A stretch of DNA of 64,000 bases from a virus. The notes under the pieces are model-generated. The model did no database searches and had not been told where the DNA came from. It saw nothing but the letters and a program-made list of their open reading frames with translations. Positions 31,023-51,208 of the stretch are shown piece by piece (position 1 is the first letter of the stretch; every line of letters begins with the position of its first letter). Where the stretch lies: the IMG/VR virus record IMGVR_UViG_3300031972_002122, positions 64,571-128,570 of that record; one strand, given 5' to 3'. Made by a program: the position numbers and the translations under genes.

Positions 31023-32624
31023 ATGGCGGCACCGAATTATAACACTGATTTAACGACGATCGATACTGCGGAGACTACTACTGGCTATAATCAGATAAAT
31101 CATGCTGGTGGTGGTGGTGGTTCGTTGGGTGTTGGGGCTGACTTTTCAATGCAAGGAACATTTTGCGTAGATAGGCAGGTGACTAGTAATAACAGGGGTA
31201 TTGCGTTTGATAATGGTACCCCGTTCATTGCTGACGCGACAGTTGGTGACGACCATATATTTGTTTGGATGTATGTGGCGACTTCTGGTCTTGCCGATAC
31301 TCTTCAAAATGAGGGTGGTGCCATTATGGTTGGAAATGCCACGAATCAGCTAGTTAGATATCACGTGGAGGGTAGTGATACGTATGGTGCGGGTGGGCGT
31401 GTGGCTAGGTGTTATCCAGTTAGACACAATCCAACAACTAATGCTTCCCCACCGTATAGAACATTGACTGGTACACCATCCAATGCTGCGCAGGTTGTGG
31501 GATGTTCAATTAATATGACAGGTACTGTAAAGGGTGCGAATCTTGGACTAGATGCTCAGCGATATGGTACGGGTTTATTTGTATCTGGTGGTGAGGCTGG
31601 CAACGCTGGAACATTTTCAGGATCAGCCGCTGTGAATGACAGTATTTCAAATCGTTGGGGTATACTTACACGAATTGGTGGTACATTTGAGCTGCAGGGA
31701 CACTACGGTATCGGTGTAGACATCAACGGAAATCCATCCCCAGCATATTTCGATGACTCGAATGTACTCGTGCAAATCGTTGACACGCCACATACCGACC
31801 CTGACTTTACCAGAATATTGATAGATCATGAGAGTACTACATGTAATTTGACTAACGTTAGTTTTCTATCACTGGGAGTCAACAATCGAGGTTATTTGGA
31901 TGTTCGGAACGCGTCTACAACTGCATCGTTTGTTGGTTGTGTATTTACTGATTTTGGTAATACTTTCCTGAATGCGAATGTTACGGCTAGTGCCTGTACG
32001 TGGAGAAATTCCGAGGTTATATACGGGAGTGGATCACACGTTGAGTCGTGTACTATCTCACACAACCTATCTGCTGGGTCGTCATCATTGGTTATATCAT
32101 CTTTAGATAAGATCATTGGGTGTGAATTCAGTACAGGATCAGGTGTAGTTAACGGTGGACACGCTATAGAAATAACTCAGGGTGGCGTGACTGCATCATT
32201 TTCTGGGAATACCTTCACAAACTTTGATGCGAACGATACGTCAGGGTCAGCGATTTTCAACAATAGTGGTGCTAATATTGTGATTAATATTAGTAATCAG
32301 GGAGATACACCAACCGTCCGTAATGGTGCTGGTTCGACAACACAGATTAACAATCCAACAGCATTCACGATAACTGGTATCATTTCTGGGTCGGAAGTTA
32401 GGATACATGCCGATGATGGTGAGCCTAGAACTGAATTGGCTGGGCAAGAATCCGTCGAAGGGACTTTTATTTATAGTTATAACTACGGTGGTAGTGATGT
32501 AGATGCGTTCCTCACCGTGGGTAATGTTGGTTATGAATGGTTCGAACTTCCAATCACATTAGGTAATGCAGATCAGACTCAAGCAGTACAACAGCGGATA
32601 GATAGAAATTATAGTAATCCATAA
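31023..32624 (+). CDS. putative tail fibre or receptor-binding protein with beta-helix-like region
   Basis: Gly/Thr/Asn-rich, repeated GCxF/GNTF turns, C-terminal DRNY. Confidence 0.55.
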   Translation: MAAPNYNTDLTTIDTAETTTGYNQINHAGGGGGSLGVGADFSMQGTFCVDRQVTSNNRGIAFDNGTPFIADATVGDDHIFVWMYVATSGLADTLQNEGGAIMVGNATNQLVRYHVEGSDTYGAGGRVARCYPVRHNPTTNASPPYRTLTGTPSNAAQVVGCSINMTGTVKGANLGLDAQRYGTGLFVSGGEAGNAGTFSGSAAVNDSISNRWGILTRIGGTFELQGHYGIGVDINGNPSPAYFDDSNVLVQIVDTPHTDPDFTRILIDHESTTCNLTNVSFLSLGVNNRGYLDVRNASTTASFVGCVFTDFGNTFLNANVTASACTWRNSEVIYGSGSHVESCTISHNLSAGSSSLVISSLDKIIGCEFSTGSGVVNGGHAIEITQGGVTASFSGNTFTNFDANDTSGSAIFNNSGANIVINISNQGDTPTVRNGAGSTTQINNPTAFTITGIISGSEVRIHADDGEPRTELAGQESVEGTFIYSYNYGGSDVDAFLTVGNVGYEWFELPITLGNADQTQAVQQRIDRNYSNP

Positions 32625-32793
32625 AAATAAGTTGATATGAAAATAGACGAAGCGATGATCAAACTGCGCACACTACAAGCAGCTATATTTGATCCAGAGA
32701 AAAATAAAAATGATTTGTTTGCAATGACAAATCAGATTATGAATGATCTTGAGCAAGTCTCAAGGGATATTAAAAATAAAGAAGGTGTAGACG

Positions 32794-33006
32794 ATGGGAA
32801 ATAATATTGATATAGTAAGTCTTAAACTTAAGCAACTAAAGCAAGCACTTCGTGATCCTACTAAGTCAGTTAAGGATTTGGAAAAAATGATAGATGACAT
32901 GGGGGAGAATGTTAAACTCGCGTCAAATGAAATCCAGATAAACTACGAACAGATATCTAAACGTCTAACGGACGAGATGAATGGTAAATCTTCAAAGAGA
33001 GAATAA
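32794..33006 (+). CDS. small coiled-coil protein
   Basis: ORF; similar to an unlisted ORF at ~32637 (MKIDEAMIKLRTLQAAIFDP). Confidence 0.5.
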   Translation: MGNNIDIVSLKLKQLKQALRDPTKSVKDLEKMIDDMGENVKLASNEIQINYEQISKRLTDEMNGKSSKRE

Positions 33007-33009
33007 TAT

Positions 33010-34263
33010 ATGGCACAAGTGTTTTTATTTGATGGAGAATCTAGCAGGATTAAGTGTCAAAATACATCGTCATTTACTATGACCGAGGTATACAGTCGTT
33101 GGAAGGACTGGGTACTCACATCGGATAATGCGAAGTTTTTGCGTGCGTTTAGATTTGTGGGGGGTGACCCTACGGTTTCTGGGAGATCGCTAGGGATAAC
33201 ATACTTTTTAATGAACAATTGGAGAATTGTGCCATTTACAGGATCATTAGATTATGATCTAGATGTTGAGGGTAATTTGTTCTTAGATGAGGCAACTAAT
33301 TCAGTGAGTGCGTCGAACCCTTACGAGTTCCCGGGCGTACTGGTACGACAATCCGTATCCAACCTTACCGACGCGCAAGTACTTGAATCAGATATTAATA
33401 AGCGACTAGATTATACAAATGACACGGTGTTCTTAGACCCAATCGGTGGGGTTAGTGGATCGCTACACCCTGTTGGTACGTCGGCATCCCCAGTTAATAA
33501 TGAAGCACAAGCACTTCAATTAATGGGTACGTATGGGCTACAGCACGTGGTGGTTCAAGGTCACTATACACTATCTAAAAATTGGGATGGTAAGGAGATA
33601 ATCGGTGAAACTCAGATGGTTAATTTGACAATCGACTCGGCATCACTTAATAATACTAAGATTTCTAATATCTCACTGACTGGGTATATCGATTCTACTA
33701 GATTTATGGTAGAGAGATCACTCGTGTATGATTTGACATATCAGAATGGGTGGTTTGATACGTGTGGGTTGTCGGGATCGTTATGTATGATCAATACACA
33801 ACCTAATGCTACATTCTTTTCGTGCTTCTCGATGGTGCCCGGTACAGGATCACCATTACTAGATTTCGCGGGATCGTCTAATTCACTCGTCAATATTCGA
33901 ATGTATTCTGGGGGTATACGATTCAAAAATTATGCATCGTCGACAAATATTAGTACCGTTGAATTTACTGCTGGTCGGATGAATATCGATCCAACATGTT
34001 CAGATGGTTTACTATCAGTACGTGGTACTGCATACTTGAACGGTACTGGTAGTGGTGTTAATTTGGAGACTGGATCATTATTTAACCCAGTATTCTTCAG
34101 TCGAAAGATTGATGACATGGCTACTAAAACTAAGGACATACACCTAGTTCACGGACTCGATCCAACAGCACCTATGTATGTGACTAAGACGCAGCGAACG
34201 GCTGGTGATGTGTCGCAAACATTCGTGACAGGTAGTGGTGATGTGACAGTAACGAGGTTGTAG
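33010..34263 (+). CDS. putative virion structural protein
   Basis: EVYSRWKDW...GGDP N-terminal motif; beta-rich. Confidence 0.55.
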   Translation: MAQVFLFDGESSRIKCQNTSSFTMTEVYSRWKDWVLTSDNAKFLRAFRFVGGDPTVSGRSLGITYFLMNNWRIVPFTGSLDYDLDVEGNLFLDEATNSVSASNPYEFPGVLVRQSVSNLTDAQVLESDINKRLDYTNDTVFLDPIGGVSGSLHPVGTSASPVNNEAQALQLMGTYGLQHVVVQGHYTLSKNWDGKEIIGETQMVNLTIDSASLNNTKISNISLTGYIDSTRFMVERSLVYDLTYQNGWFDTCGLSGSLCMINTQPNATFFSCFSMVPGTGSPLLDFAGSSNSLVNIRMYSGGIRFKNYASSTNISTVEFTAGRMNIDPTCSDGLLSVRGTAYLNGTGSGVNLETGSLFNPVFFSRKIDDMATKTKDIHLVHGLDPTAPMYVTKTQRTAGDVSQTFVTGSGDVTVTRL

Positions 34264-34625
34264 TGGAAGCGAACGGTCTTGATCCATTAACTATAGCCAA
34301 CCAAGGGCTACTTTCTAACGATCCATGTCAGGTCGCAGCTCAGGGATTGTTACATGTACGTATAGACATTGTCGATCCCGAGGATGAAATTATCATACCA
34401 GATACTGGTGGTGGGATCGTTGATAATGACATATGGAAGCGTAAGACTAAGGAAGAGAAGAAGAAATTACGTGCTAAAATCACAGTTTCGGCAACTGTTG
34501 ATGGAATTACATACGAAGAAATTAAGTATTCAAATGATTGCAGTATAACTGTACAAGACGTTGACATTCAAGTAGTTGAGTCTACTACTAAGCCTAAAAT
34601 TACCATTGAAGTTAAAAAAAAATAG
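34263..34625 (+). CDS. hypothetical protein
   Basis: ORF overlapping the upstream stop. Confidence 0.55.
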   Translation: MEANGLDPLTIANQGLLSNDPCQVAAQGLLHVRIDIVDPEDEIIIPDTGGGIVDNDIWKRKTKEEKKKLRAKITVSATVDGITYEEIKYSNDCSITVQDVDIQVVESTTKPKITIEVKKK

Positions 34626-34643
34626 TAGAAACTTTGTAAAAAA

Positions 34644-34678
34644 TTTGGTTATGTCTTGATGTTTTATATATATTTGCA
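34644..34678 (+). promoter_or_regulatory. Bacteroidota-type sigma70 promoter for tRNA block A
   Basis: TTTG...TATATTTG, matching -33 TTTG / -7 TAnnTTTG. Confidence 0.7.
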
Positions 34679-34706
34679 CATACTTATGAACGAAGAGATA
34701 CGAAAA

Positions 34707-34814
34707 ATGAAAACATTATTATATACATATAGTCTTTTATCGATGACACTGACAAGTGGCTGGTCGTTTTGCGACGGGACGGATTGTCTTTGTAATCTCC
34801 GCTGTGTGGAATAA
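34707..34814 (+). CDS. putative attenuator leader peptide of tRNA block A (MKTLLYTYSLLSMTLTSGWSFCDGTDCLCNLRCVE)
   Basis: Manual translation (in-frame upstream ATG at 34686); lies between promoter and terminator; composition matches downstream tRNAs. Confidence 0.75.
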   Translation: MKTLLYTYSLLSMTLTSGWSFCDGTDCLCNLRCVE

Positions 34815-34855
34815 AGTATTCATGTAATATGTAAGGGATACATTTTAAACATATA

Positions 34856-34891
34856 GAAGCTCGGAGACATAAAAAATCTTCGGGCTTTTTT
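34856..34891 (+). terminator. attenuator terminator upstream of tRNA block A
   Basis: GAAGCTCGGAGA/TCTTCGGGCTTT plus U-run. Confidence 0.8.
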
Positions 34892-34904
34892 AATTTATAG
34901 TAAT

Positions 34905-34973
34905 ATGGAAAATAGAGAAGACATAGAATATTATTATAGCATTACCAATGGGTGTGCTATCGTTGTGGTGTAA
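34905..34973 (+). CDS. Tyr-run uORF (MENREDIEYYYSITNGCAIVVV) reading into tRNA-Tyr
   Basis: TAT TAT TAT at 34929-34937, 12 nt before the tRNA. Confidence 0.7.
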   Translation: MENREDIEYYYSITNGCAIVVV

Positions 34974-35034
34974 ACAAGGCGGTCTGTAAAACCGTCGCCG
35001 TTGGCTAAGATGGGTTCGAATCCCTCCACACCCA
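34950..35034 (+). tRNA. tRNA-Tyr(GTA)
   Basis: GGGTGTG/CACACCC; GCGGT-CTGTAAA-ACCGT; variable arm; TTCGAAT. Confidence 0.85.
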
Positions 35035-35049
35035 CAAAATTTTTAAACT

Positions 35050-35211
35050 ATGAAATGTCCAAAGTGTACGGGAGAACTAAAAAAAGAATTGTTAAAGGAC
35101 AATTCACAACAGGCTCAAGGATCGTGGACTTGTAAGGATTGTAGAACCATTTGGTTCATAATTGAATGTGGGAACCGCGAACGGGGCAAGTATGGAAAGA
35201 AGGTGACGTAG
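35050..35211 (+). CDS. small Zn-ribbon protein (53 aa)
   Basis: Manual translation MKCPKC...WTCKDC. Confidence 0.6.
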   Translation: MKCPKCTGELKKELLKDNSQQAQGSWTCKDCRTIWFIIECGNRERGKYGKKVT

Positions 35212-35278
35212 CTGAGTTTTGGTTTAGCGCAGGTTTGAAGCATCTGAGACGTAGGTTCGATCCCTACCGTCACCACCA
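35202..35278 (+). tRNA. tRNA-Phe(GAA)
   Basis: GGTGACG/CGTCACC-A-CCA; CAGGT-TTGAAGC-ATCTG. Confidence 0.92.
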
Positions 35279-35298
35279 AAATTTCCATACTTATTAGT

Positions 35299-35877
35299 AT
35301 GGAAAGATTAAAACTTAAAAAGTTATTAGACTCTGGTAAAAGTACTAGAGAGATTGCAGAGTTAATTGGAAGGGGGCAGACGACTGTTAGATATTGGATT
35401 AAGAAGCATGGGTTGCGATGTAAGTATCATGAGATTAATCGTCAACAGCGGATAAGTGATATTTGTGAAGCTGTTGCCAAGTCCACCTCATACTCAGAGG
35501 TATGTAGGAAGTTGAAAATTCCTCGTTCTGGAAATTCATATCAGAATATGAGATCGGTGATTGAGAGATTGAGTTTAGATGTCTCCCATTTTACAGGGCA
35601 GCGAAAATATCTAGAGTCTATAAAATTAACTCCATATGATGTATTAATATATGATCGGTTGGATGGTAGGCGGGAACGTACTATAGTGTTGCGTAACGCG
35701 TTAACTGAACTTGGTGTTGATGTGTGTAGATGTAGCCTGTGTGGGTTAGATTCTTGGTTGGGAAAACCACTTGGAATGCATATTGATCATATAGATGGTG
35801 ATAGATTAAATAATATTCGTGATAATTTGAGAATTTTATGTCCAAATTGTCACAATCAAATAACGTATAACAAATGA
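35299..35877 (+). CDS. HNH homing endonuclease with N-terminal HTH
   Basis: CSLCG, HIDHIDGDRLNN..DNLRILCPNCH. Confidence 0.9.
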   Translation: MERLKLKKLLDSGKSTREIAELIGRGQTTVRYWIKKHGLRCKYHEINRQQRISDICEAVAKSTSYSEVCRKLKIPRSGNSYQNMRSVIERLSLDVSHFTGQRKYLESIKLTPYDVLIYDRLDGRRERTIVLRNALTELGVDVCRCSLCGLDSWLGKPLGMHIDHIDGDRLNNIRDNLRILCPNCHNQITYNK

Positions 35878-35939
35878 AATACAAAATAAAAAACAGCAAA
35901 GTCATGTAAGTATTTTAACTTACAAAATAGGACTTTGAT

Positions 35940-36221
35940 ATGAGTAGATCAAGAAAGAAACACGGTGTTGTTAAAGACCGTGGACTCACCCGTAGAGAAT
36001 GGAACAGAAAATTCAGAAGGGTGAACAGACAACGAGTACGTATGGGTAAAGACCCATACCAAATGAAGGAACTGATAAATCCTTACGATGTGTATGATTG
36101 GATATACATATGGGATGAATCGGATATGCAGCGACGGTGGGCTGAAGATGGACGCCATGATTATTATAAAAGGGTATATAAAACCCTTGATAATATGCGT
36201 CGCTGGTACTTTAGAAAGTGA
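35940..36221 (+). CDS. basic conserved phage protein (MSRSRKK family)
   Basis: ORF track. Confidence 0.65.
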   Translation: MSRSRKKHGVVKDRGLTRREWNRKFRRVNRQRVRMGKDPYQMKELINPYDVYDWIYIWDESDMQRRWAEDGRHDYYKRVYKTLDNMRRWYFRK

Positions 36222-36224
36222 CAT

Positions 36225-36295
36225 GGGGATAAGCGTAGGTTGTGTCAGGTGGTCTCCAAAACCGCTCTGTTAGAGTTCGAATCTCTATATCCTTG
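36225..36295 (+). tRNA. tRNA-Trp(CCA), weak D arm
   Basis: GGGGATA/TATCCTT-G; GTGGT-CTCCAAA-ACCGC; TAGAG-TTCGAAT-CTCTA. Confidence 0.8.
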
Positions 36296-36336
36296 CTATT
36301 CGAGTACGTATAAGCACCGCGTTAAGGGCTTGCTAT

Positions 36337-36425
36337 AGTGCTAAAGCGAATGGAAAGCGATCGCCCTGTCACGGCGACATCAGTCGAAAGATTGTATGCG
36401 GGTTCGAGTCCCGTTAGCACTGCCA
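36337..36425 (+). tRNA. tRNA-Asp(GTC) with long variable arm
   Basis: AGTGCTA/TAGCACT-G-CCA; TCGCC-CTGTCAC-GGCGA. Confidence 0.88.
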
Positions 36426-36576
36426 ATAAGAAGCCGTGTGTAAATCCCTGATGATCCAGAATACTCGAGGTCTGGGGAGGGGGTGGAGCATGTAAAGAAA
36501 GCAGTTAACCTAACGTACATGGGGATGACTCGGTTTAAATCCGACGTGAGTAGCGGGACGATATACGCTACAACTC

Positions 36577-36651
36577 GCGGCACACGCATAAGAGGTGGTG
36601 CACCTGCCTTCCAAGCAGGAATTAGATTCGGTTCGATCCCGAAGTGCCGCA
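36577..36651 (+). tRNA. tRNA-Gly(TCC)
   Basis: GCGGCAC/GTGCCGC; CCTGC-CTTCCAA-GCAGG. Confidence 0.9.
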
Positions 36652-36724
36652 CAAATTGATCATCGCTAGGAGATGCATCGGTTGAGAATCAGTTAGGCTG
36701 CTCGATTTGACTGGCGATGAACTT

Positions 36725-36798
36725 GCGACCAACGCATAAGAGGTGGTGCACCACGTTGCCAACGTGGAATAGAGCGAGTTCGATCCTCGCTGGTCGCC
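36725..36798 (+). tRNA. tRNA-Gly(GCC)
   Basis: GCGACCA/TGGTCGC; CCACG-TTGCCAA-CGTGG. Confidence 0.9.
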
Positions 36799-36875
36799 AA
36801 AATCTAGGTCGCAACTAGATGATGTGAGTTATGAGTTCAGGAATCTCACGAAGAATGACAAAATGTCCTGTCTAT

Positions 36876-36947
36876 GTCTCTAAAGCATTTATGGATGATG
36901 TCCACCTTTGTACCGTGGGGAACGGGATTCGATTTCTCGTAGAGACT
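36876..36947 (+). tRNA. tRNA, probably Thr(TGT)
   Basis: GTCTCTA/TAGAGAC; CCACC-TTTGTAC-CGTGG with one mismatch; anticodon register somewhat ambiguous. Confidence 0.65.
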
Positions 36948-36997
36948 CAACAATTCGATTCCAGTGTTTGATTCGTTTTTTGTATACTTATATATGT

Positions 36998-37654
36998 ATG
37001 AAATGGACAGAAACTGAATTGAACGAAGTGATTAATCTTATCAAAAGTGGTAAGACTTATGGTGAAATATCTAACATTGTGGGTAGAAGTAAATCTTCTA
37101 TCAAAAATAAACTAGGGCGTAGCAACGAAAATTATAAAAAGTATGTTAAGTGCGACGTGCTTTTATGTATTCAGTGTGATAATGTTATTAAAAATTTTGG
37201 TATTAAATTTTGCTCTAGATCATGTGCTACTACTTATAACAATTTACTACGAGGAAAAAATCCACGTAAGTGTAAGTGTTGTGGTGGTGAATATTTCGGA
37301 AGAGCTAAAAAATACTGCAGTATTTATTGCTTTCATAAAAGTCAGTGGATGGCAATCGTGAATTTAATTGAATCTGGTGATACTAGCCTTTCTAATCGAC
37401 GTTATAAAAAATATTTAATTTATAAATATGGTGAACAATGTATGGAATGCGGTTGGGATAAAATCAATCCATATAGTGGAAATATACCAATTGAATTAGA
37501 ACATATCGATGGTAATTCTAATAATAACTCTTTGGATAACTTAAAATTATTATGTCCTAATTGTCATTCACTCACACCAACATACAAAGCATTAAATATT
37601 GGTAATGGTCGACATAACCGCATGGTGAGATATAAATCTGGTAAGAGTTTTTAA
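36998..37654 (+). CDS. HNH endonuclease with HTH and Cys-rich repeats
   Basis: FCSRSC, YCSIYC, ELEHIDGNSNNN..NLKLLCPNCHSLT; start moved to MKWTE because the longer ORF overlaps a tRNA. Confidence 0.9.
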   Translation: MKWTETELNEVINLIKSGKTYGEISNIVGRSKSSIKNKLGRSNENYKKYVKCDVLLCIQCDNVIKNFGIKFCSRSCATTYNNLLRGKNPRKCKCCGGEYFGRAKKYCSIYCFHKSQWMAIVNLIESGDTSLSNRRYKKYLIYKYGEQCMECGWDKINPYSGNIPIELEHIDGNSNNNSLDNLKLLCPNCHSLTPTYKALNIGNGRHNRMVRYKSGKSF

Positions 37655-37750
37655 AAAGAGCCGTTTAGACTGTGAGGCGTACCATAGGGATGGTGAATAT
37701 CCTTACATTTATGTGTTGCGTATATGAAAAAGTTTTTTTATATTTGATGT

Positions 37751-38014
37751 ATGAGAAAATTAGAAGGCACAACAGCATGTAAAATGAGAGATGAACTTTG
37801 GTCTAAGCGGAGTAAAACGTTTACACCTACTGTGATTACCAACAGGTTGACTAAGATTGGAATACCAGCGTGGTTACGGTCACAGATCATTCAAATGGTA
37901 CGGTACAACGAAATGGATCGATGTACAGATGCAATTGAGCAGGCGATGTACCAGTCTGTATGTAATTTGATCGTCAAGGAATTGATGGATGCTGAGAAAA
38001 AGGTATTTGATTAA
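37751..38014 (+). CDS. hypothetical protein
   Basis: ORF after a sigma70-like promoter. Confidence 0.6.
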   Translation: MRKLEGTTACKMRDELWSKRSKTFTPTVITNRLTKIGIPAWLRSQIIQMVRYNEMDRCTDAIEQAMYQSVCNLIVKELMDAEKKVFD

Positions 38015-38022
38015 AACAATAT

Positions 38023-38092
38023 AGCACAAGTGCGCGGGACACAGGACGGACTCATATTCTGTCTTCGCTCGGATCGTTACCGAGTTGTGCTA
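38023..38092 (+). tRNA. tRNA(CAT), Met or Ile2, with non-canonical D and T loops
   Basis: AGCACAA/TTGTGCT; ACGGA-CTCATAT-TCTGT; CTCGG-ATCGTTA-CCGAG. Confidence 0.7.
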
Positions 38093-38107
38093 CTGATTAG
38101 AATAAAA

Positions 38108-38206
38108 ATGAAAGAAAGAACTGAAATATCGAGTAGTAGTTCCAGATACTGGAAGGTGAACCTAGCAGGGTCTAGGACTGGATTGCTAATCCATGGGGTC
38201 GGGTAA
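38108..38206 (+). CDS. Ser-run uORF (MKERTEISSSSSRYW...) reading into tRNA-Ser
   Basis: TCG AGT AGT AGT TCC at 38129-38143, 7 nt before the tRNA. Confidence 0.72.
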   Translation: MKERTEISSSSSRYWKVNLAGSRTGLLIHGVG

Positions 38207-38238
38207 AACTGACTGGGCTTCGATTGCTCCTCCTTCCG
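38151..38238 (+). tRNA. tRNA-Ser(GCT)
   Basis: GGAAGG/CCTTCC-G; TGGA-TTGCTAA-TCCA; long variable arm. Confidence 0.82.
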
Positions 38239-38245
38239 CTTAATT

Positions 38246-38335
38246 GGTAAGTTAAGCAGTCCCATGGAGGGGCGACTAGTCTTGAAAACTAGGTAGCAGG
38301 TCATGCTGCTCGGGGGTCGGTTCCTCAACTTACCG
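38246..38335 (+). tRNA. tRNA-Ser(TGA)
   Basis: GGTAAGT/ACTTACC-G; CTAGT-CTTGAAA-ACTAG; long variable arm. Confidence 0.85.
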
Positions 38336-38343
38336 CAATTTAT

Positions 38344-38417
38344 GGTCAAGTGGCTGAGTGGATGTAGGCATCTGATTGCAAGTCAGGTTTACGGGGGTTC
38401 GAATCCCTCCTTGACCT
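38344..38417 (+). tRNA. tRNA-Cys(GCA)
   Basis: GGTCAAG/CTTGACC-T; TCTGA-TTGCAAG-TCAGG. Confidence 0.92.
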
Positions 38418-38430
38418 CAACGAAAAAATT

Positions 38431-38484
38431 ATGAAAGTAATAAATACATACAATCGATTACGACTGCTACTCTTACCTGAGTAG
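38431..38484 (+). CDS. Leu-run leader peptide (MKVINTYNRLRLLLLPE)
   Basis: TTA CGA CTG CTA CTC TTA; followed by a hairpin and four tRNA-Leu genes. Confidence 0.78.
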   Translation: MKVINTYNRLRLLLLPE

Positions 38485-38521
38485 CCTCACCACTTCAAAA
38501 TTCAGTGGGGGGCAAATCTAT

Positions 38522-38595
38522 GCCCCCATGGTGGAACTGGAATACACGTTTGATTAAGGATCAAAAGCTTGCGAGTTCGAATCTCGCTGGGGGTA
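38522..38595 (+). tRNA. tRNA-Leu(AAG), short variable loop
   Basis: GCCCCCA/TGGGGGT-A; TTTGA-TTAAGGA-TCAAA. Confidence 0.85.
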
Positions 38596-38605
38596 CAAAA
38601 AGAAA

Positions 38606-38666
38606 CCGATCGGGTACACGGTATACCCGATTGGGTACACGGTATACCCGATTGGGTATATCCGAT
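38606..38666. repeat. 21-bp tandem repeat (~2.9 copies), each copy a hairpin
   Basis: CCGATYGGGTACACGGTATAC x2 plus a partial third copy. Confidence 0.85.
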
Positions 38667-38749
38667 GACTCTGTGATGAAATGGAAGACATGCCCGGCTC
38701 AAAATCGGGTGCCTAGCTAGGCGTGTGGGTTCGAATCCCACTAGGGTCA
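38667..38749 (+). tRNA. tRNA-Leu(CAA)
   Basis: GACTCTG/TAGGGTC; CCCGG-CTCAAAA-TCGGG; variable arm. Confidence 0.9.
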
Positions 38750-38754
38750 CAAAT

Positions 38755-38832
38755 ACCTCCGTGGGCAAATGGTAAAGTCCGCAGTCTTAGACACTGTAAT
38801 CGTAGTTGCTGGTTCGACTCCAGTCGGAGGTA
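38755..38832 (+). tRNA. tRNA-Leu(TAG)
   Basis: ACCTCCG/CGGAGGT; GCAGT-CTTAGAC-ACTGT. Confidence 0.9.
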
Positions 38833-38840
38833 CAATTAAT

Positions 38841-38914
38841 AGTCCCGTAGCCCAACCGGAAGAGGCATCAGGTTTAAACTCTGTTCAGTGTGGGTTCGAC
38901 TCCCATCGGGACTA
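38841..38914 (+). tRNA. tRNA-Leu(TAA), short variable loop
   Basis: AGTCCCG/CGGGACT; CAGG-TTTAAAC-TCTG. Confidence 0.85.
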
Positions 38915-38937
38915 CTATTTTTTATATACTTATTAGT

Positions 38938-39669
38938 ATGTGTACATGTATTGATATAAACGAGCTCCAATTGATTGAGGATGGATCACAACCAGACTTC
39001 AATCTGGATAATGAATTTGCCGAAGCTAATAGAAAATACTTCAAGGGCATGCTTAAGAAGATTCCTATGGAATATAAACACCTGACTGGTAAACTAGGGT
39101 TAGTTAAAGCTAAAGTGCGTAGAGATAGCTCTAAACGGATCGTGAAAGCATTCCCAGTAGTACTGCAGATGACTGATCAATTCAATTACACCAGAGAACA
39201 ATTCTTGAGTACATTCTTACATGAACTTTGCCACTTATTCATGCTGCAGGATGCTGGTAAGTATTCGTGGAGTGGTGGGTATCATGGTAGAGAATGGCAG
39301 AAACTAGCTGATACCGTATCTAAGAAATCTGGTGTACCTATAACTAAGGACGAACATACTGGTAAATATGACACTAAAGACCTACCATCACCAGTAGTAG
39401 CGTTTGCCAAATTTAGTGGTGGGCATATTAGTATCGCATATACAACCAAAAGTATATGGAGTCGGCGAGATGATGAGTATATAGATTGGTTAACCGCCAC
39501 CGCTAAAGGGAAGCAGTGGGTGGTCTTCACAACCAGAGATGGTCGAATAACAAACTTCGCTGCAAAATCTATAAAGAGACCCACGTTCTATAAAATCGAT
39601 CAGGACATTGTTACTGACATGATGAAGAACAAATCCGAAGAAGTTATATTAACCAATAATCATGTATAG
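38938..39669 (+). CDS. SprT-like zinc metalloprotease
   Basis: FAEANRKYF, TFLHELCH (HExxH), YHGREW. Confidence 0.8.
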   Translation: MCTCIDINELQLIEDGSQPDFNLDNEFAEANRKYFKGMLKKIPMEYKHLTGKLGLVKAKVRRDSSKRIVKAFPVVLQMTDQFNYTREQFLSTFLHELCHLFMLQDAGKYSWSGGYHGREWQKLADTVSKKSGVPITKDEHTGKYDTKDLPSPVVAFAKFSGGHISIAYTTKSIWSRRDDEYIDWLTATAKGKQWVVFTTRDGRITNFAAKSIKRPTFYKIDQDIVTDMMKNKSEEVILTNNHV

Positions 39670-42617: not shown

Positions 42618-42752
42618 ATGAAAGATTTGATGAACATAGAACGTGTGGACGAACCAGCCGAGGAGACATGGCGCGGTCGTCTAAATGGACTAGGACACCA
42701 GACTTTCAATCTGGACGATGCGGGTTCGATCCCCGTCCGCGCTACCAAGTAG
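42618..42752 (+). CDS. Glu-rich uORF (MKDLMNIERVDEPAEET...) reading through tRNA-Glu
   Basis: GAA, GAA, GAG GAG within the last 10 codons before the tRNA. Confidence 0.68.
   Translation: MKDLMNIERVDEPAEETWRGRLNGLGHQTFNLDDAGSIPVRATK
42670..42747 (+). tRNA. tRNA-Glu(TTC)
   Basis: GGCGCGG/CCGCGCT-A-CCA; CCAGA-CTTTCAA-TCTGG. Confidence 0.93.
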
Positions 42753-42784
42753 TCGTTTTATGTACTTTTTACATACTAATTAAA

Positions 42785-42925
42785 ATGACAACTAAAGAAT
42801 TATTAAAGCCAGTATACGATTCGGCACGTATTGTTACACTTAAAAAACTATATGTTCCGAAATCATTGAGAAAATATCTTAAGACTAAAAAAGTAAATGG
42901 CTTGACGGTTATGGATACCAATTAA
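42785..42925 (+). CDS. small hypothetical protein
   Basis: MTTKELLK start downstream of the tRNA. Confidence 0.5.
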   Translation: MTTKELLKPVYDSARIVTLKKLYVPKSLRKYLKTKKVNGLTVMDTN

Positions 42926-42944
42926 CAAAAAACAAAATAACGTA

Positions 42945-43016
42945 ATGAACACATACACAATCATACAACATCAACCGCAGCCCGTAGGGGCTATTCATCA
43001 ACATAGATTGGTGTAG
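42945..43016 (+). CDS. Gln/His/Pro leader peptide (MNTYTIIQHQPQPVGAIHQHRLV)
   Basis: 4 Gln, 3 His, 2 Pro; followed by a hairpin and tRNA-Pro, -His, -Gln. Confidence 0.8.
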   Translation: MNTYTIIQHQPQPVGAIHQHRLV

Positions 43017-43052
43017 GGAATTGATATGTCGTTCCCTTACATCGTAAGATAA

Positions 43053-43127
43053 CGGGGAGCGATCCATTGGTGTGGTTGCGCGGTTTGGAGCCGTGGTTAT
43101 TTGAAGGTTCGAATCCTTTCTCCCCGA
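43053..43127 (+). tRNA. tRNA-Pro(TGG)
   Basis: CGGGGAG/CTCCCCG-A; CGCGG-TTTGGAG-CCGTG. Confidence 0.88.
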
Positions 43128-43141
43128 CTAGTAATACACAT

Positions 43142-43235
43142 GGTGTGCGAGTCGGATATGGTTTTTTGCCGAGGCAGGTTGTGACCCTGTTGTAGAAATT
43201 TCTACATGCGAGTTCGAATCTCGTCGTACACCCCA
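43142..43235 (+). tRNA. tRNA-His(GTG) with long variable arm
   Basis: G-1:C73, CCA; GCAGG-TTGTGAC-CCTGT; TGTAGAAATTTCTACA extra hairpin. Confidence 0.88.
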
Positions 43236-43253
43236 TTAGTAGTTTTTTTATAA

Positions 43254-43326
43254 AGACCTATGGTATAACGGCTCATTACATCGGCTTTTGGCGTCGAGGA
43301 TTCCAGTTCGATTCTGGATAGGTCTT
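43254..43326 (+). tRNA. tRNA-Gln(TTG)
   Basis: AGACCTA/TAGGTCT; TCGGC-TTTTGGC-GTCGA. Confidence 0.87.
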
Positions 43327-43351
43327 CAAGAATAAAATAATAATAGCATAT

Positions 43352-43469
43352 GGGGGAGATTTATCTCACTCTTTTAGGTGATCTCCTTATGGTAGTAGTA
43401 AATAGAGTTACTTCGGTTAACATTTGTACTTGAAATTCAAATTACTTGGTTCGATTCCAAGCTCCCCCA
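43352..43469 (+). ncRNA. 118-nt tRNA-like RNA (TGA loop) with enlarged D region
   Basis: GGGGGAG/CTCCCCC-A, CTTGG-TTCGATT-CCAAG, TTGTA-CTTGAAA-TTCAA. Confidence 0.65.
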
Positions 43470-43496
43470 CATTTTTTAATCTTAAAAAGGATAGTT

Positions 43497-43577
43497 ATGT
43501 TTAAAAGTATTTTTACACGAATGTTTGTTCGTACATACACAGTTCACGCACCTGCAGTGCCATACCACAAAAGATAA
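43497..43577 (+). CDS. 26-aa uORF ending 3 nt before the initiator-like tRNA
   Basis: Manual translation MFKSIFTRMFVRTYTVHAPAVPYHKR. Confidence 0.45.
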   Translation: MFKSIFTRMFVRTYTVHAPAVPYHKR

Positions 43578-43580
43578 TAT

Positions 43581-43667
43581 CGCGGGGATGAAGGCTGTTG
43601 GTATGCCTCCTAAGTCTCATAAGCTCTGAACGTTTAACGTGTGTAGGTTCGATTCCTACCCCCGCTA
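43581..43667 (+). tRNA. tRNA-Met(CAT), initiator-like (C1 unpaired), atypical
   Basis: CGCGGGG/CCCCGCT; CTCATAA loop; long variable region. Confidence 0.75.
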
Positions 43668-43672
43668 CTATC

Positions 43673-44119: not shown

Positions 44120-45030
44120 TGGGAGGTGGAACGTATAATTTTAATGCTAGAGCTACGTCTTCGGTTACTAAAGGTTTTAACAAGGCAACTGTTGATTCGT
44201 TGGATACTGTATTTAAGCAGCAACGACAACGCCGAGTGCATGATAGTCTCGACCCACGCGGTGTGGTTATTCGGGAATCTAGGGATGGTGAGGATCACCC
44301 AGAATCATTAGCTATTTTAGTTGGTATAGATGTCACAACATCAATGGGTAACGTCCCAGTATTGTTAATACGTGACGGACTACCCAATATGATACAGCGT
44401 ATATTCGAGGAGGGTATCGCTGATCCACAGGTGGCGTTCATTGCCATCGGTGATCATGAGTGTGATAACTATCCATTACAGATCGGGCAGTTCGAATCTT
44501 CGGATCAGCTACTAGATGAGTCGTTGACCAACACCTATATTGAAGGTGGTGGTGGTGGCAATGGTGGTGAGAGTTATTTGTTAGCTTGGTACCACGCCGC
44601 GATGCACACGTCAATTGATTGTTTTGAAAAGCGCGGACAGAAAGGGGTTCTTATAACAATTGGTGATGAGCCATGTCTTAATAAGGTTTCTGGATCAGTA
44701 TTAGCTAGGTTGTATAATTTACAATCTGAACTAGATTATTCAGCAGCAGAATTGTTAAAACTTGCTTCGGAGAAGTATGATGTGTATCATATCAATGTCG
44801 GATCGACGTATTCTGGGTATAGATCGAGTACTAAGAATTATTGGAAAGAGTTGCTTAGTGATCATTTCATCGACGCTAAAAGTCATGAAGATATTCCTAG
44901 AATTGTTGCGGAGCTGACGTCTAAGAGTTATAGTGGTACTCGGCAGAAAGTTGAGACTGACTATGCTGAGGCTTATAATGGATCACCTACAGACGTGGAT
45001 GATATTAAAGAACCTAAAATCACATTATAA
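44119..45030 (+). CDS. vWA (MIDAS) domain protein
   Basis: DVTTSMG (DxTxS), AIGDHECD, EGGGGGNGGESY, ITIGDE. Confidence 0.85.
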   Translation: MGGGTYNFNARATSSVTKGFNKATVDSLDTVFKQQRQRRVHDSLDPRGVVIRESRDGEDHPESLAILVGIDVTTSMGNVPVLLIRDGLPNMIQRIFEEGIADPQVAFIAIGDHECDNYPLQIGQFESSDQLLDESLTNTYIEGGGGGNGGESYLLAWYHAAMHTSIDCFEKRGQKGVLITIGDEPCLNKVSGSVLARLYNLQSELDYSAAELLKLASEKYDVYHINVGSTYSGYRSSTKNYWKELLSDHFIDAKSHEDIPRIVAELTSKSYSGTRQKVETDYAEAYNGSPTDVDDIKEPKITL

Positions 45031-46178
45031 TGAATGTAAGTATTGTCACTGGAGTTGGATATGGCGACGAAGGTAAAGGCGTAACCACTAAGTGGCTATG
45101 CGAGCAATTGTTATCTGGGAATGATGATGTACATGTGATGGTAGTCCGATTTGGTGGTGGAAATCAAGTCGGACATACCACCATGGTTGATGATTTCATT
45201 CACACACATCATCACACTGGTGCTGGAACCTTAGTAAATGTACCAACGTTCTATTCTAGATTCTGTACTGTAGACCCAATTAACACGGTATCTGAGATTG
45301 AGTTCTTAACCCAGAAGGGATTTACACCACGTAATATGTATGACCCACGGTGTATGATTGTAACTCCACTCGATGTGATTTACAATCGAATGCGTCATGC
45401 TAAAACACAACACGGAAGTGTTGGGGTGGGGTTTGGTGCAACTATTGCTAGAAATGAATCACACTACCGACTATATGTTGCCGACATTGCAACTCGGGAG
45501 ATATTCATCCAGAAGTGTAAGGGTATCCAGCAATATTATAACAGCCTAGGTGTGGATTTTGATCTAGATTGTGAGGCGTTTTACATCGACTGTATTAACT
45601 TTTTAGATATTGTGGAGGTAAGCAATCTAAATCTGGAGATAACACGTTACATTGGCTCAAAATCGTCCCATATAGTATTTGAGGGGCATCAAGGGGTATT
45701 GCTAGATCAGGAATATGGTGTATTTCCCCATGTTACTAGATCAAAGACTACATGTAAGAATGCATTCACGATACTTGAAGAAGAGAACCTTAACGGGATA
45801 TGTGAGCATATAAATCAATTCATGGTAACGCGAGCATATCATACACGTCATGGTAATGGGTATTTTGAAGAGGAGGATATTTTACTGACAAATACTGAGT
45901 TTGAAACTAATAAATTCAGTGAGCATCAGGGAGCATTTAAAACAGCTCCACTTAACAAAGCATTATTGACTAGGGGAGTACTTTGTAATCTTATGGATGA
46001 GTCTGACTTAGGAAATATTAAAAGACATCTAGTAGTTACGTGTTGTGATCAAGTAGAGTCTTATGAGGACGTCATTGAATATATTTCTGAAACCACCCAA
46101 CTACTGGACACTCTGTGTATTAATGACCATCCATCAGGAAACATTAGACTATATGCCAAGGAAGAAAAAGATAACTAA
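45030..46178 (+). CDS. purA: adenylosuccinate synthetase-like protein (divergent PurA family)
   Basis: GYGDEGKG, RFGGGNQVGHT, HGSVGVG, FEGHQGVLLDQEYGVFPHVTRS, TRHGNG. Confidence 0.85.
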   Translation: MNVSIVTGVGYGDEGKGVTTKWLCEQLLSGNDDVHVMVVRFGGGNQVGHTTMVDDFIHTHHHTGAGTLVNVPTFYSRFCTVDPINTVSEIEFLTQKGFTPRNMYDPRCMIVTPLDVIYNRMRHAKTQHGSVGVGFGATIARNESHYRLYVADIATREIFIQKCKGIQQYYNSLGVDFDLDCEAFYIDCINFLDIVEVSNLNLEITRYIGSKSSHIVFEGHQGVLLDQEYGVFPHVTRSKTTCKNAFTILEEENLNGICEHINQFMVTRAYHTRHGNGYFEEEDILLTNTEFETNKFSEHQGAFKTAPLNKALLTRGVLCNLMDESDLGNIKRHLVVTCCDQVESYEDVIEYISETTQLLDTLCINDHPSGNIRLYAKEEKDN

Positions 46179-47034: not shown

Positions 47035-47668
47035 TATATTGAGTGAATCGTTAGACTTTGGCTTAATCAATGAGGCTGGACTAGCCAGAGTTTTATCTAG
47101 GGTCGGTGGTAAGGATTTTATTATAGCATCGGCGTATCGGTACGGGAATTCTAATAAGGAAAATCGAAGACGTAATGGTGAACTTTTAAATTATCTAAAC
47201 ACTAAGAGGATGGGCGGTTACGTTTTAATTGGACACTGGCAAGAAGCACCCGACGGGATAGAGTGGAAGGACGCTGATCAGGATCAGTTGACGGATTCTA
47301 TAGAAGAAGCTATTCTATTTATCAAGCCTGATGATATGAGTCGTGATGAATTTACACAAATTGGGGTAGACATAACCAATCAATATAATCAAGATGCGGT
47401 ATTATTAGGTTTAAACAGTTCTGAACTAGACGCTGAACCTGAAGCTGGAGCTCCGTCGTTAGATAATATGGATGTGTATCTACTCTTTAAGGATGGCGGT
47501 CGTGAGAAAATAGGCACCAGACTGACATTGAATAAAATATCTCAGGCTTATTCTCAATTAAAATCTAAACCAAACATTCCGTTTGTATTTGAAGGTGTGC
47601 TACATCCTACGAATAATCTGGGTAAGCAGCTCTTTAAGATAAAAAATATATTGTATGAAATTAATTGA
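47021..47668 (+). CDS. hypothetical protein (MKLIDIL.E N-terminus)
   Basis: IASAYR..NKENRRRN..L; YNQDAVL. Confidence 0.7.
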   Translation: MKLIDILSESLDFGLINEAGLARVLSRVGGKDFIIASAYRYGNSNKENRRRNGELLNYLNTKRMGGYVLIGHWQEAPDGIEWKDADQDQLTDSIEEAILFIKPDDMSRDEFTQIGVDITNQYNQDAVLLGLNSSELDAEPEAGAPSLDNMDVYLLFKDGGREKIGTRLTLNKISQAYSQLKSKPNIPFVFEGVLHPTNNLGKQLFKIKNILYEIN

Positions 47669-48341
47669 TATGTTAATAGAAACGTTGGTGACTGAAGGCG
47701 TGTATGATCCAGCGATATTTAAAGCAATTTTCATAGTAGGCGGTGCAGGCTCTGGGAAGACATTCGTTAGGAATAAATCGACTAGAGGATTGGGTTATAA
47801 AGTGGTGACGTCGGATGATATGCTTGTTTCGCTAATGAACAAGAATAATCTATCACTAAAAATGCCCCCAGAGGAGGATGATGAGCGTGATGCACTAAGA
47901 ACTATCGCTAAGGATAAAACAGACGATCGATTAGACATGTATCTAGAAAATCGCCTAGGTGTTATTATTGAAGGTACAGGGCATAATTATGAAAATATCA
48001 AAAATACTCAGCGGAGATTAGCTGAACTTGGGTACGACACGTTTATGATCTTTGTGAACGTTCCAATGGATGTAGCATTAGATAGAAATGCTAAACGAGA
48101 TAGATCAGTTCCACCAGATATTGTTAAAGAGAAATGGCTCAACGCTCAGCAAAACTTGGGTAGGTATCAGTCACTATTTGGTCGGAATAATGTTTCTATC
48201 ATAGATAATGATGACCCATCCGAGAATGTATTTGAACGAATGTGGAAAAACGTTATGATTTTTACCAAGATGAAGGTCAAAAATCACCGAGCAGTGGAGT
48301 GGATAAAGCAGCAATTGAAAAAAAAAGACAGAAATAATTAA
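47655..48341 (+). CDS. P-loop kinase, zeta-toxin/AAA_33-like
   Basis: GGAGSGKT, IIEGTG, VALDRNAKRDRSVP. Confidence 0.85.
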   Translation: MKLIDMLIETLVTEGVYDPAIFKAIFIVGGAGSGKTFVRNKSTRGLGYKVVTSDDMLVSLMNKNNLSLKMPPEEDDERDALRTIAKDKTDDRLDMYLENRLGVIIEGTGHNYENIKNTQRRLAELGYDTFMIFVNVPMDVALDRNAKRDRSVPPDIVKEKWLNAQQNLGRYQSLFGRNNVSIIDNDDPSENVFERMWKNVMIFTKMKVKNHRAVEWIKQQLKKKDRNN

Positions 48342-48346
48342 AATAA

Positions 48347-48380
48347 TTTGGTTTATTCGAAATGTTTTATATATATTTAC
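48347..48380 (+). promoter_or_regulatory. Bacteroidota-type promoter for tRNA block C
   Basis: TTTGG...TTTTATATATATTTA, near-copy of the block A promoter. Confidence 0.68.
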
Positions 48381-48397
48381 ACTAATTATAAAAAATC

Positions 48398-48478
48398 ATG
48401 TTAAGAAATATCAACATATCAGCCATTAAAGTGAATCGCATTAAAGCGAAAGGGTCGAAGTATGTCGTGTTGATATAA
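48398..48478 (+). CDS. putative attenuator leader peptide of tRNA block C (MLRNINISAIKVNRIKAKGSKYVVLI)
   Basis: Manual translation; I/K/N/R/A/V-rich; its 3' end is complementary to the terminator 5' arm. Confidence 0.8.
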   Translation: MLRNINISAIKVNRIKAKGSKYVVLI

Positions 48479-48504
48479 ACTAAATTAGAAGTAATTAAGG
48501 ATAT

Positions 48505-48539
48505 AAAGCCAGTACGACAAGATCGCACTGGCTTTTTTT
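48505..48539 (+). terminator. attenuator terminator directly before tRNA block C
   Basis: AAAGCCAGTACGA/TCGCACTGGCTTT plus U-run. Confidence 0.85.
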
Positions 48540-48542
48540 ATT

Positions 48543-48621
48543 GGCGAGTACCAGCCCATCCTGATAAGATGGAGAACTGTAATTGGTTGTTGAAAATGTG
48601 GGTTCAAATCCCATCTCGCCA
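48543..48621 (+). tRNA. atypical tRNA-Ile(GAT) lacking a normal D arm
   Basis: GGCGAG/CTCGCC-A; CCATC-CTGATAA-GATGG; GTGGG-TTCAAAT-CCCAT. Confidence 0.7.
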
Positions 48622-48637
48622 ACTTAACTGTTAAAAT

Positions 48638-49739: not shown

Positions 49740-49744
49740 TAATC

Positions 49745-51202: not shown

Positions 51203-51208
51203 CGAATT

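Follow-up and report, generated by a model that had tools for sequence, protein, structure and literature searches.

The window analysed here is a stretch of 64,000 nucleotides (nt) of DNA from an uncultured, probably marine phage, namely the second half (positions 64571-128570) of the IMG/VR record IMGVR_UViG_3300031972_002122, which comprises 128,570 base pairs (bp) and is estimated to be 73% complete. Coordinates below are those of the window. We propose that the region 34642-34897, at the head of a block of transfer RNA (tRNA) genes, is a ribosome-mediated (leader-peptide) transcription attenuator, and put the probability of this reading at roughly 0.6. The block in question, block A (34950-38915, + strand), contains 14 tRNA genes for exactly ten amino acids, Tyr, Phe, Trp, Asp, Gly, Thr, Met, Ser, Cys and Leu (set A), the same ten that a sequence-only reading of the region had named. 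Judged from sequence, the region has the features by which an attenuator can be recognised: a short open reading frame (ORF), cognate codons in it, a terminator, and a candidate alternative helix that would share a strand with the terminator and lie under a terminating ribosome. On the proposed reading, the phage probably makes the block A tRNAs mainly when ribosomes decode the leader codons slowly. A cassette of the same build, with a quite different peptide, precedes another tRNA block.

Composition of the leader peptide

The leader A ORF (34707-34814, + strand; ATG at 34707, TAA at 34812-34814) has 35 codons, starts 28 nt past the promoter-like motif described below, and lies 135 nt ahead of the first tRNA gene. 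Its predicted translation product is MKTLLYTYSLLSMTLTSGWSFCDGTDCLCNLRCVE. After the start codon, 29 of the 34 residues belong to set A, and all ten amino acids are present, in agreement with the count given in the sequence-only reading. The residues outside the set are K2, N30, R32, V34 and E35, the last four at the C-terminus as that reading had it, and codons 3-26 are in the set without exception (24/24).

The match in composition is far beyond chance. In an exact set test, which works without reference to background composition, just 56 of the 184,756 possible sets of ten amino acids equal the 29/34 of set A (3.0e-4), and 29 is the maximum that any set can attain for this peptide. The binomial probability is 1e-5, with a background of 0.486 taken from the long ORFs of the phage. 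The signal is confined to one frame: the other five frames of the same DNA have 11-21 of 32-36 residues in the set. Among 741 ATG ORFs of 20-60 residues on both strands of the genome, none attains the leader A fraction; this list uses the first ATG of each frame and therefore includes leader A in a longer form. When 84,331 stop-free windows of 24 residues in six frames were compared, at least 23 of 24 residues fell in the set in only seven overlapping windows, all of them within the leader A ORF. The result depends to some extent on the choice of start codon. If translation began at the ATG at 34686 instead, 30 of 41 residues would be in the set (p = 9.4e-3).

Codon choice points in the same direction. 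All five Thr codons of leader A are ACA or ACG, those decoded by the sole Thr tRNA (anticodon tgt), compared with 47% in the genome, and 13 of the 14 block A tRNAs have a cognate codon in the leader by standard wobble rules.

Terminator and predicted alternative helix

In the intrinsic terminator of leader A (34856-34897, + strand), a 12-bp stem that includes three G-U pairs closes a 9-nt loop and is followed by a U-rich tail. The 5' arm (34856-34867), loop (34868-34876) and 3' arm (34877-34888) are followed by a T-rich stretch, and the hairpin has a predicted stability of -14.3 kcal/mol, so that the terminator predicted at 34856-34891 by the sequence-only reading was recovered. Minimum-energy and centroid folding of the region both yield the hairpin, which is among only eight + strand hairpin/U-tract sites of -13 kcal/mol or lower in the 128,570 bp. 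A simple terminator scan missed it because the loop has 9 nt and the scan allows no more than 8 nt.

The alternative helix uses the stretch 34796-34808 (UCUCCG followed by CUGUGUG) near the end of the ORF as its 5' strand. The pairing of TCTCCG (34796-34801) with CGGAGA (34862-34867) in the 5' arm of the terminator, which had been noticed from sequence alone, is found where it was predicted. In addition, CUGUGUG (34802-34808) pairs with CAUAUAG (34849-34855), and the UCUCCG:CGGAGA helix is stacked on top of this outer helix across a 5-nt bulge. A ribosome finishing the leader A ORF would cover both strands. The 3' arm of the terminator begins with UCUUCG, a weaker copy of UCUCCG. UCUCCG forms six Watson-Crick pairs with CGGAGA, UCUUCG five plus one G-U pair, and UCUCCG is therefore the better partner.

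The behaviour of this helix was modelled on the nascent transcript, folded as it would be just before synthesis of the 3' arm, with a ribosome-sized stretch kept single-stranded at each codon in turn and with three different footprints. The minimum-energy fold of the nascent RNA contains the antiterminator. Its pair probability is 0.80-0.97 with the A site at codons 1 to 25, 26 or 27, depending on the footprint, and 0 from there to the stop codon. The composite structure is predicted at -18.3 kcal/mol, with -7.4 from the outer helix. In a control for upstream pairing that covered all eight strong terminators, leader A had the largest gain (-7.5 kcal/mol). Of the five residues outside set A, four belong to codons 30-35, a stretch in which the helix limits the choice of sequence (Fisher p = 0.012), and the geometry of a gate that opens on any stall would explain this clustering of exceptions at the 3' end.

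Rfam searches of 34640-34900 gave no match; the only matches at 30000-60000 (gathering threshold) and at 34500-57000 (E <= 1) were of the tRNA type.

The upstream motif and the cassette before block C

Leader A is preceded by a 38-nt promoter-like motif (34642-34679, + strand), which has the form AATTTGGTT, 9 variable nt, ATGTTTTATATATATTT, R, CAC, and is repeated at 48340-48377. It is possible to read it as TTGGTT, an 18-nt spacer and TATATT. Exact copies of the 17-nt core of the motif are limited to 34659 and 48362, both in the window and in the whole genome, and a degenerate copy with three mismatches is found at 42550, before block B. A search of the genome with the DNA of the region itself likewise returned the sequence upstream of leader A at 48318-48392 (75% identity). 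The recurrence of the motif is consistent with the promoter that the sequence-only reading had placed here, and we take the motif to be a putative promoter.

The second copy belongs to a cassette (48340-48545, + strand) which has the shared 38-nt motif, an ORF, a predicted antiterminator and a terminator, and is followed by block C (48542-56559), with tRNA genes for Ile, Ala, Asn, Arg, Lys, Leu and Val. The leader C ORF (48398-48478, + strand; 26 codons) encodes a basic, aliphatic peptide quite unlike that of leader A. In this peptide, 21 of 25 residues belong to the block C set, and only 4 of 77,520 sets of seven amino acids equal that (5.2e-5). When the sets are swapped, the tests fail: leader A has 11 of 34 residues in set C (p = 0.61), and leader C has 6 of 25 in set A (p = 0.98). 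The match in composition and the block-specific repeat are real, and hard to explain without some form of translation-linked control of the tRNA blocks.

Terminator C (48506-48536, + strand; -15.0 kcal/mol) is, like terminator A, one of the eight + strand terminators of -13 kcal/mol or lower, and each of the two stands between the shared motif and a tRNA block. The predicted antiterminator C is a 10-bp helix of UGUCGUGUUG (48463-48472) with 48510-48519. In the nascent model it is intact with the ribosome at codons 1-17/19 and lost beyond. The sensing zone of leader C has 16 of 17 residues in the set and the tail 5 of 8 (Fisher p = 0.08). A candidate protector (1:2) helix is formed by 48408-48417 with 48468-48477.

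In block B (42670-43668; Glu, Pro, His, Gln, Met), a short ORF of 23 codons with the runs QHQPQP and HQH (42945-43016) lies directly ahead of tRNA-Pro, -His and -Gln. Nine of its 22 residues are Gln, His or Pro, which 7 of 1,140 sets equal, and the ORF is followed by a hairpin without a U-tract (region 42945-43052).

A further terminator in the area (56447-56486, -18.6 kcal/mol) ends 12 nt before tRNA-Arg (tct), and its 5' arm pairs upstream with -6.6 kcal/mol. This could be one more gate, or else an ordinary terminator belonging to a 159-residue ORF.

Proposed mechanism

Transcription would start at the phage promoter motif that blocks A and C have in common, and a ribosome would translate the 35-codon leader. 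With prompt decoding, the ribosome would soon be at the last codons or the stop codon and would cover UCUCCGCUGUGUG (34796-34808). The nascent CGGAGA would then be free, the hairpin 34856-34888 would form, and RNA polymerase would stop at the U-tract. If the ribosome had to wait in codons 2-26 for a charged tRNA of any of the ten kinds, UCUCCG would pair with CGGAGA above the CUGUGUG/CAUAUAG helix, the upper terminator stem would be held, and the polymerase would read into the tRNA genes. We infer that the switch is kinetic and that the read-through transcript extends into the block. Fresh phage tRNAs would relieve the stall, which would close a negative feedback loop. The trigger might be a mismatch of codon usage and tRNA supply, or else host defences that cleave tRNAs, as is suggested by genes for RtcB and a P-loop kinase-like protein in the tRNA zone.

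The sequence-only reading had described the element as a ten-input OR gate. The nascent folds with ribosome masking, a check that it had itself proposed, fit read-through on any stall, since the antiterminator is lost only once the modelled ribosome is at codons 26-28 or later, depending on the footprint. The complete leader at equilibrium behaves differently, as discussed below.

If the attenuator reading is correct, phages could gauge decoding speed directly and feed this information back on tRNA supply. It would also bear on the question why phages carry tRNAs, be it for codon compensation or for escape from tRNA-cleaving defences. Leader A would be a natural ten-input RNA logic gate, and leaders of this kind, now unannotated, would become a recognisable feature in the annotation of phage genomes.

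A wider reading is tentative, and we consider the odds to be somewhat against it. Large phages of unrelated lineages might have a 'tRNA on demand' regulon, with a master leader for each block that samples all amino acids of the block and acts as a many-input OR gate, and additional local upstream ORFs (uORFs) with cognate codons that gate single tRNAs or small groups once more. If this were true, the phage could tell for each codon whether the host tRNA is scarce or has been cut by anticodon nucleases, and could make up for exactly the missing ones, with RtcB-type repair genes encoded in the same blocks. The phiCbK-family leader, which is conserved and is described below, would then be a cultured, testable member of the class.

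Arguments against the attenuator and alternative explanations

Several findings weigh against the attenuator reading. The first group concerns expression. A scan for the sigma-70 consensus does not list a promoter at 34645-34674, so that the promoter predicted from sequence alone stands as a recurring motif, not as a consensus match. The ribosome-binding site of leader A is weak, a purine-rich GAAGAGA at 34692-34698, 9 nt before the start codon; a Shine-Dalgarno-like motif is present in just 36 of 97 long ORFs, and few of these 36 are in the tRNA zone. The second group concerns composition. Set A is half of the amino-acid alphabet, and low-complexity ORFs rich in Gly, Tyr, Ser and Asp at 61.5-63.8 kb reach 28-30/34 for it.

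The third group concerns RNA structure. In the equilibrium fold of the complete leader A, the terminator has a probability of at least 0.89 at every ribosome position, so that the OR gate of the sequence-only reading has no switch at equilibrium. As the terminator wins everywhere, any switch must be kinetic. In the trp attenuator, the terminator is likewise the most stable element, and the decision is kinetic. The distinctive helix of antiterminator A is short (6 bp) and not unusual by chance, since 9% of random genomic 30-mers pair equally well with the terminator arm. For the tail of leader C, the corresponding value is 3.5%. Three of six other strong terminators also gain from upstream pairing, by -4.0 to -6.6 kcal/mol. 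Leader A has no clear protector (1:2) helix, and the nascent free RNA contains no stable competitor for UCUCCG, so untranslated RNA would read through. A protector helix is a trait of the classical trp type, not of every attenuator. At leader C, the 5' arm is mostly unpaired upstream (0.16) when 175 nt of context are included, because a helix of the 1:2 type competes. Finally, no usable relative, homologue or variant of the leader A element was found in the phage collection, the viral contigs, the metagenome contigs or the protein collection.

Among the alternatives, the one that survives best, though we regard it as unlikely, is that the hairpin just ends transcription of a small-peptide gene or of the tail-fibre genes (31023-34625), with the tRNAs transcribed from their own promoters and the match in composition coincidental. 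Terminator A is the first strong one past the stop codon at 34625 and might just close the upstream tail-fibre operon. A promoter-like site internal to the region (34906-34934; TGGAAA, 17 nt, TATTAT) could feed tRNA-Tyr on its own, and antiterminator A is not statistically distinctive. On the other hand, two such coincidences would be needed (3.0e-4 and 5.2e-5), each of them with the correct block and with crossed tests that fail, and the shared motif would drive transcripts of only about 200 nt before both terminators.

Less probable still, leader A might encode a functional small protein, with a hydrophobic N-terminus and a four-Cys tail, that resembles set A by chance, the basic block C peptide being another such protein. 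The ORF is intact, four Cys residues lie within the last 14 residues, and small phage proteins are common. However, among 5.8 billion proteins there was no candidate homologue of 23-74 residues that has three 5-residue words in common with the leader A peptide. Two unrelated peptides that each match their own downstream tRNA set would be left unexplained, as would the location of the exceptions where the RNA helix constrains the codons.

An equally improbable variant is that the element senses translation in general, with read-through set by any leader translation (coupling, ribosome supply) and not by particular tRNAs. In the nascent model, untranslated RNA also forms antiterminator A, and loss of translation would thus open the gate. 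For such a sensor the block-specific amino acids would be needless, whereas leaders A and C draw on sets that hardly overlap, each in keeping with its own block. That the region is the gene of a trans-acting small regulatory RNA (promoter, RNA of about 210 nt, terminator) would fit the compact promoter-to-terminator unit and a fold z-score of -2.29, but is very improbable in view of the lack of an Rfam family match and of a composition signal that is frame-specific and points to translation.

Comparison with known systems

Leader-peptide attenuators of enterobacteria can be multivalent. The thr leader senses Thr and Ile, and the ilvGMEDA leader senses Ile, Leu and Val; trpL, hisL, pheL and leuL are further examples. 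Like leader A, these have a short ORF with the relevant codons past a promoter and an intrinsic terminator before the regulated genes. Their antiterminator, as is predicted for leader A, has one strand in common with the terminator and is covered when a ribosome finishes the ORF. The differences are that leader A is a phage element and would regulate tRNA genes instead of biosynthetic ones, that it samples ten amino acids along the whole peptide, not one to three in a run, and that in the absence of a clear 1:2 helix its default state without translation would be read-through. Indeed, the genes downstream of leader A are 14 tRNA genes together with HNH and small ORFs, and none for amino-acid biosynthesis or for a synthetase.

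The pheST operon of E. coli, which encodes phenylalanyl-tRNA synthetase, has an attenuator with a Phe-rich leader. As is proposed for leader A, attenuation acts here on a gene of the translation apparatus, so that the means of decoding are adjusted to the availability of charged tRNA, but the target is a synthetase, a single amino acid is sensed and the gene is cellular. T-box riboswitches also couple tRNA status to terminator read-through. Unlike leader A, they bind one uncharged tRNA directly, without translation, and no T-box was matched here by Rfam. General accounts of leader-peptide attenuation are found in the accessible parts of PMC1183508 and PMC3082878.

The role of phage tRNAs in counter-defence against tRNA-cleaving systems is treated in PMC10264068, PMC11555353 and PMC11464382. 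These papers provide a motive for tRNAs on demand; in their accessible parts, the topic is the function of the tRNAs, not the regulation of their genes, and in that of PMC10264068 a leader, attenuation or a terminator is not mentioned. No published account of leader-peptide control of tRNA genes was found in full-text searches of a collection of open-access papers, and the regulation of phage tRNA genes by phages themselves appears to be essentially undescribed. We lean towards the view that leader A is leader-peptide attenuation with a new target (tRNA genes) and a new breadth (ten amino acids).

An independent case in phiCbK-like phages

A leader of this kind exists in cultured phages, as judged from their genomes. 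In Brevundimonas phage Kikimora (ON529857.1, about 224936-225130, - strand), a TTGACA-type promoter is followed by an unannotated 31-codon ORF, a hairpin and a terminator. The terminator (-29.7 kcal/mol) lies 57 nt before genes for tRNA-Tyr, Val, Ile, Val, Gln and Asn. At least 9 of 13 residues in {Y,V,I,Q,N} are found in only five overlapping windows, all in this ORF, among 9,811 windows of 13 residues in three + strand frames of the 14-kb locus. For the Kikimora leader as a whole, the set test falls short of significance (p = 0.146). In the part ahead of the 1:2 hairpin alone, 9 of 13 residues match (p = 0.007), although this part was picked after the fold was known.

Among phiCbK-like phages of Caulobacter and Brevundimonas, 36 other records keep the leader region at 71-77% identity and a further one at 97%, which makes 38 with the query. 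In eight records that were compared, the leader ORF is open in all eight, and the first hairpin and the terminator show compensatory changes, with 5 of 39 predicted pairs altered on both sides. The leader is rich in Tyr, Gln, Asn or Phe, Val, Ile and Arg, and the array of tRNA genes for those amino acids directly follows. By eye, all five records with tRNA-Asn in the array have two Asn codons among the first eleven leader codons, and the three records in which the array starts with tRNA-Phe and lacks tRNA-Asn all have Phe at the aligned place. Both groups retain a further Asn or Phe in the hairpin loop. The choice of Asn or Phe in the leader thus seems to track tRNA content. Since this is a single co-change that separates two clades, it is suggestive and does not prove the point.

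The likeness to leader A lies in the order of elements in these Dolichocephalovirinae: promoter, ORF of about 31 codons enriched for the amino acids that the downstream tRNAs carry, terminator, array. The array is for Val, Ile and Gln (in some cases also Asn, Phe, Tyr or Arg), and the leader samples five or six amino acids, compared with ten in leader A. In contrast to leader A, the phiCbK-like leader follows the classical 1:2/2:3/3:4 scheme, and its GC-rich stem has about -30 kcal/mol. It has no sequence similarity to the window, and its conservation in 38 records with compensatory changes is a type of evidence that leader A does not have. The phiCbK-like example makes the attenuator idea testable in a cultured system, in Caulobacter, a standard laboratory organism. 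The accessible part of PMC3556154, which describes the phiCbK genome, states that tRNAs were the only RNA elements detected there by Rfam, and the words 'attenuat' and 'leader' are absent from this part.

The terminator before the Thr/Tyr/Ala tRNA genes of Vibrio phage Va1 was considered as a similar gate and rejected, since an ordinary ORF precedes it, without a match in amino acids.

Local uORFs before single tRNAs

The sequence-only reading had also named several uORFs near tRNA genes, among them one with three Tyr codons ahead of tRNA-Tyr, one with five Ser codons, LRLLLL ahead of the four tRNA-Leu, and a Lys-rich nonamer ahead of tRNA-Lys. The first of these (34905-34973, + strand) has its three Tyr codons in a row, runs into tRNA-Tyr and is among the ORFs covered by the following test.

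The general trend was assessed with a fixed rule that takes every ATG ORF of 5-60 codons starting at most 130 nt upstream of each of 21 tRNA groups. Residues matching the amino acids of the group itself were counted, group labels were permuted 100,000 times, and the master leaders A and C were excluded. The test gave 74 of 681 matching residues, compared with 47.7 +/- 7.9 expected (P = 7e-4). In Vibrio phage Va1 (P = 0.56), Brevundimonas phage Kikimora (0.67) and Burkholderia phage FLC9 (0.41), which are likewise rich in tRNA genes, the same test showed no excess, and it therefore does not yield a signal by itself. With a cruder test for identical residues (4 of 5), 3 of 149 + strand runs were at most 200 nt upstream of a cognate tRNA, which is weak.

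Search for relatives and variants

The whole stretch is contained in one DNA run, labelled as seawater metagenome, from which it may derive. No RNA run is listed among the sequencing runs that contain it. In contigs of three DNA runs of one study, leader A is present without a difference, and the only variant piece is a fragment of RtcB with 34 differences in 247 letters.

The phage collection contains no cultured relative of this phage. A megablast search with 34000-37000 gave no match there, and the promoter-motif pattern occurs in none of the stretches of the viral contigs. For a neighbouring protein of 417 residues, a tblastn search of the phages returned one record (39% identity over 29% of the length), and in the viral contigs three loci were found (38-44% identity, N-terminus only), with no tRNAs in the loci or in the entire records. 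The SprT-like protein had no match in viral or metagenome contigs. RtcB had none in viral contigs. In metagenome contigs it had six loci (44-58% identity), with one tRNA among them and no tRNA block. All tblastn matches of RtcB and of a 303-residue protein in the phages were below 60% identity. Closer relatives of RtcB exist among protein records (P0002-P0004, 80-87% identity). The closest cellular RtcB proteins (about 61% identity) bear Desulfobulbaceae/Electrothrix names.

The tRNA blocks and neighbouring genes

All long ORFs and all tRNA genes of the region are on the + strand. ARAGORN finds 26 tRNA genes at 34950-56559 by default, and 30 at a relaxed threshold, but none in the first half of the genome. 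The genes form three blocks with protein genes between them.

In block A, 11 of the genes are default ARAGORN predictions. These are tRNA-Tyr (gta, 34950-35035), tRNA-Phe (gaa, 35202-35278), tRNA-Trp (cca, 36225-36296), tRNA-Asp (gtc, 36337-36425), tRNA-Gly (gcc, 36725-36798), tRNA-Thr (tgt, 36876-36948), tRNA-Cys (gca, 38344-38418) and four tRNA-Leu (aag, caa, tag, taa; 38522-38915), all on the + strand. Rfam agrees for Phe, Asp, Gly (gcc), Cys and the four Leu genes. The three other genes, also on the + strand, come from relaxed ARAGORN: tRNA-Gly (tcc, 36577-36652), which Rfam supports with 45.2 bits; an atypical tRNA with a CAT anticodon (38023-38093), for Met, or for Ile if the anticodon is modified; and tRNA-Ser (tga, 38251-38336), which matches the tRNA-Sec model of Rfam with 34 bits, under its cut-off. 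Of the Thr and Met genes, which the sequence-only reading had regarded as less certain, the Thr gene is found by default ARAGORN, though it is absent from the Rfam matches, and the Met gene is seen by relaxed ARAGORN only. A second Ser tRNA (GCT, about 38150-38240), which that reading had proposed, was found by no tool; there is acceptor-like pairing by eye, and it was not counted.

Some tRNA-like or repetitive elements were noted in addition. At 43353-43470, a segment of about 118 nt resembles, on visual inspection, the acceptor/T-arm frame of a tRNA interrupted by a long insertion, and is called by no tool. A tRNA-like element at 48542-48622 is detected by Rfam alone (34 bits). Between tRNA-Leu (aag) and tRNA-Leu (caa), direct repeats with a unit of about 20 nt (by eye) occupy 38599-38660.

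The tRNA zone contains the RtcB RNA ligase (51399-52577; Pfam E = 7e-111) and the P-loop kinase-like protein (47655-48341), whose best PHROG family is of unknown function, with a weaker match to polynucleotide kinase (E = 1e-11). Lying in or beside the tRNA blocks, the two look like a tRNA repair pair. A homologue of adenylosuccinate synthetase of the phage type (PHROG 1211; 45030-46178) and a TET-associated glycosyltransferase (54335-55201) suggest that the DNA may contain modified bases.

The tRNA genes of block A are interspersed with small ORFs and ORFs similar to HNH endonucleases. The HNH endonuclease-like ORFs (35299-35877 and 36998-37654) and the ORF of the SprT-like protein begin right past a common ATACTTAT(T/A)..T motif (35284-35301, 36983-37000 and 38923-38940), without a Shine-Dalgarno sequence. 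A similar CATACTTATG is found at 34679-34688, in the promoter region of leader A. Motifs of the ATACTTAT type may be a -10 element of leaderless or short-leader mRNAs. Near the end of the window (61500-63950), several + strand ORFs consist of low-complexity repeats of the GYG/GSG type, rich in Gly, Tyr, Ser, Asp and Arg.

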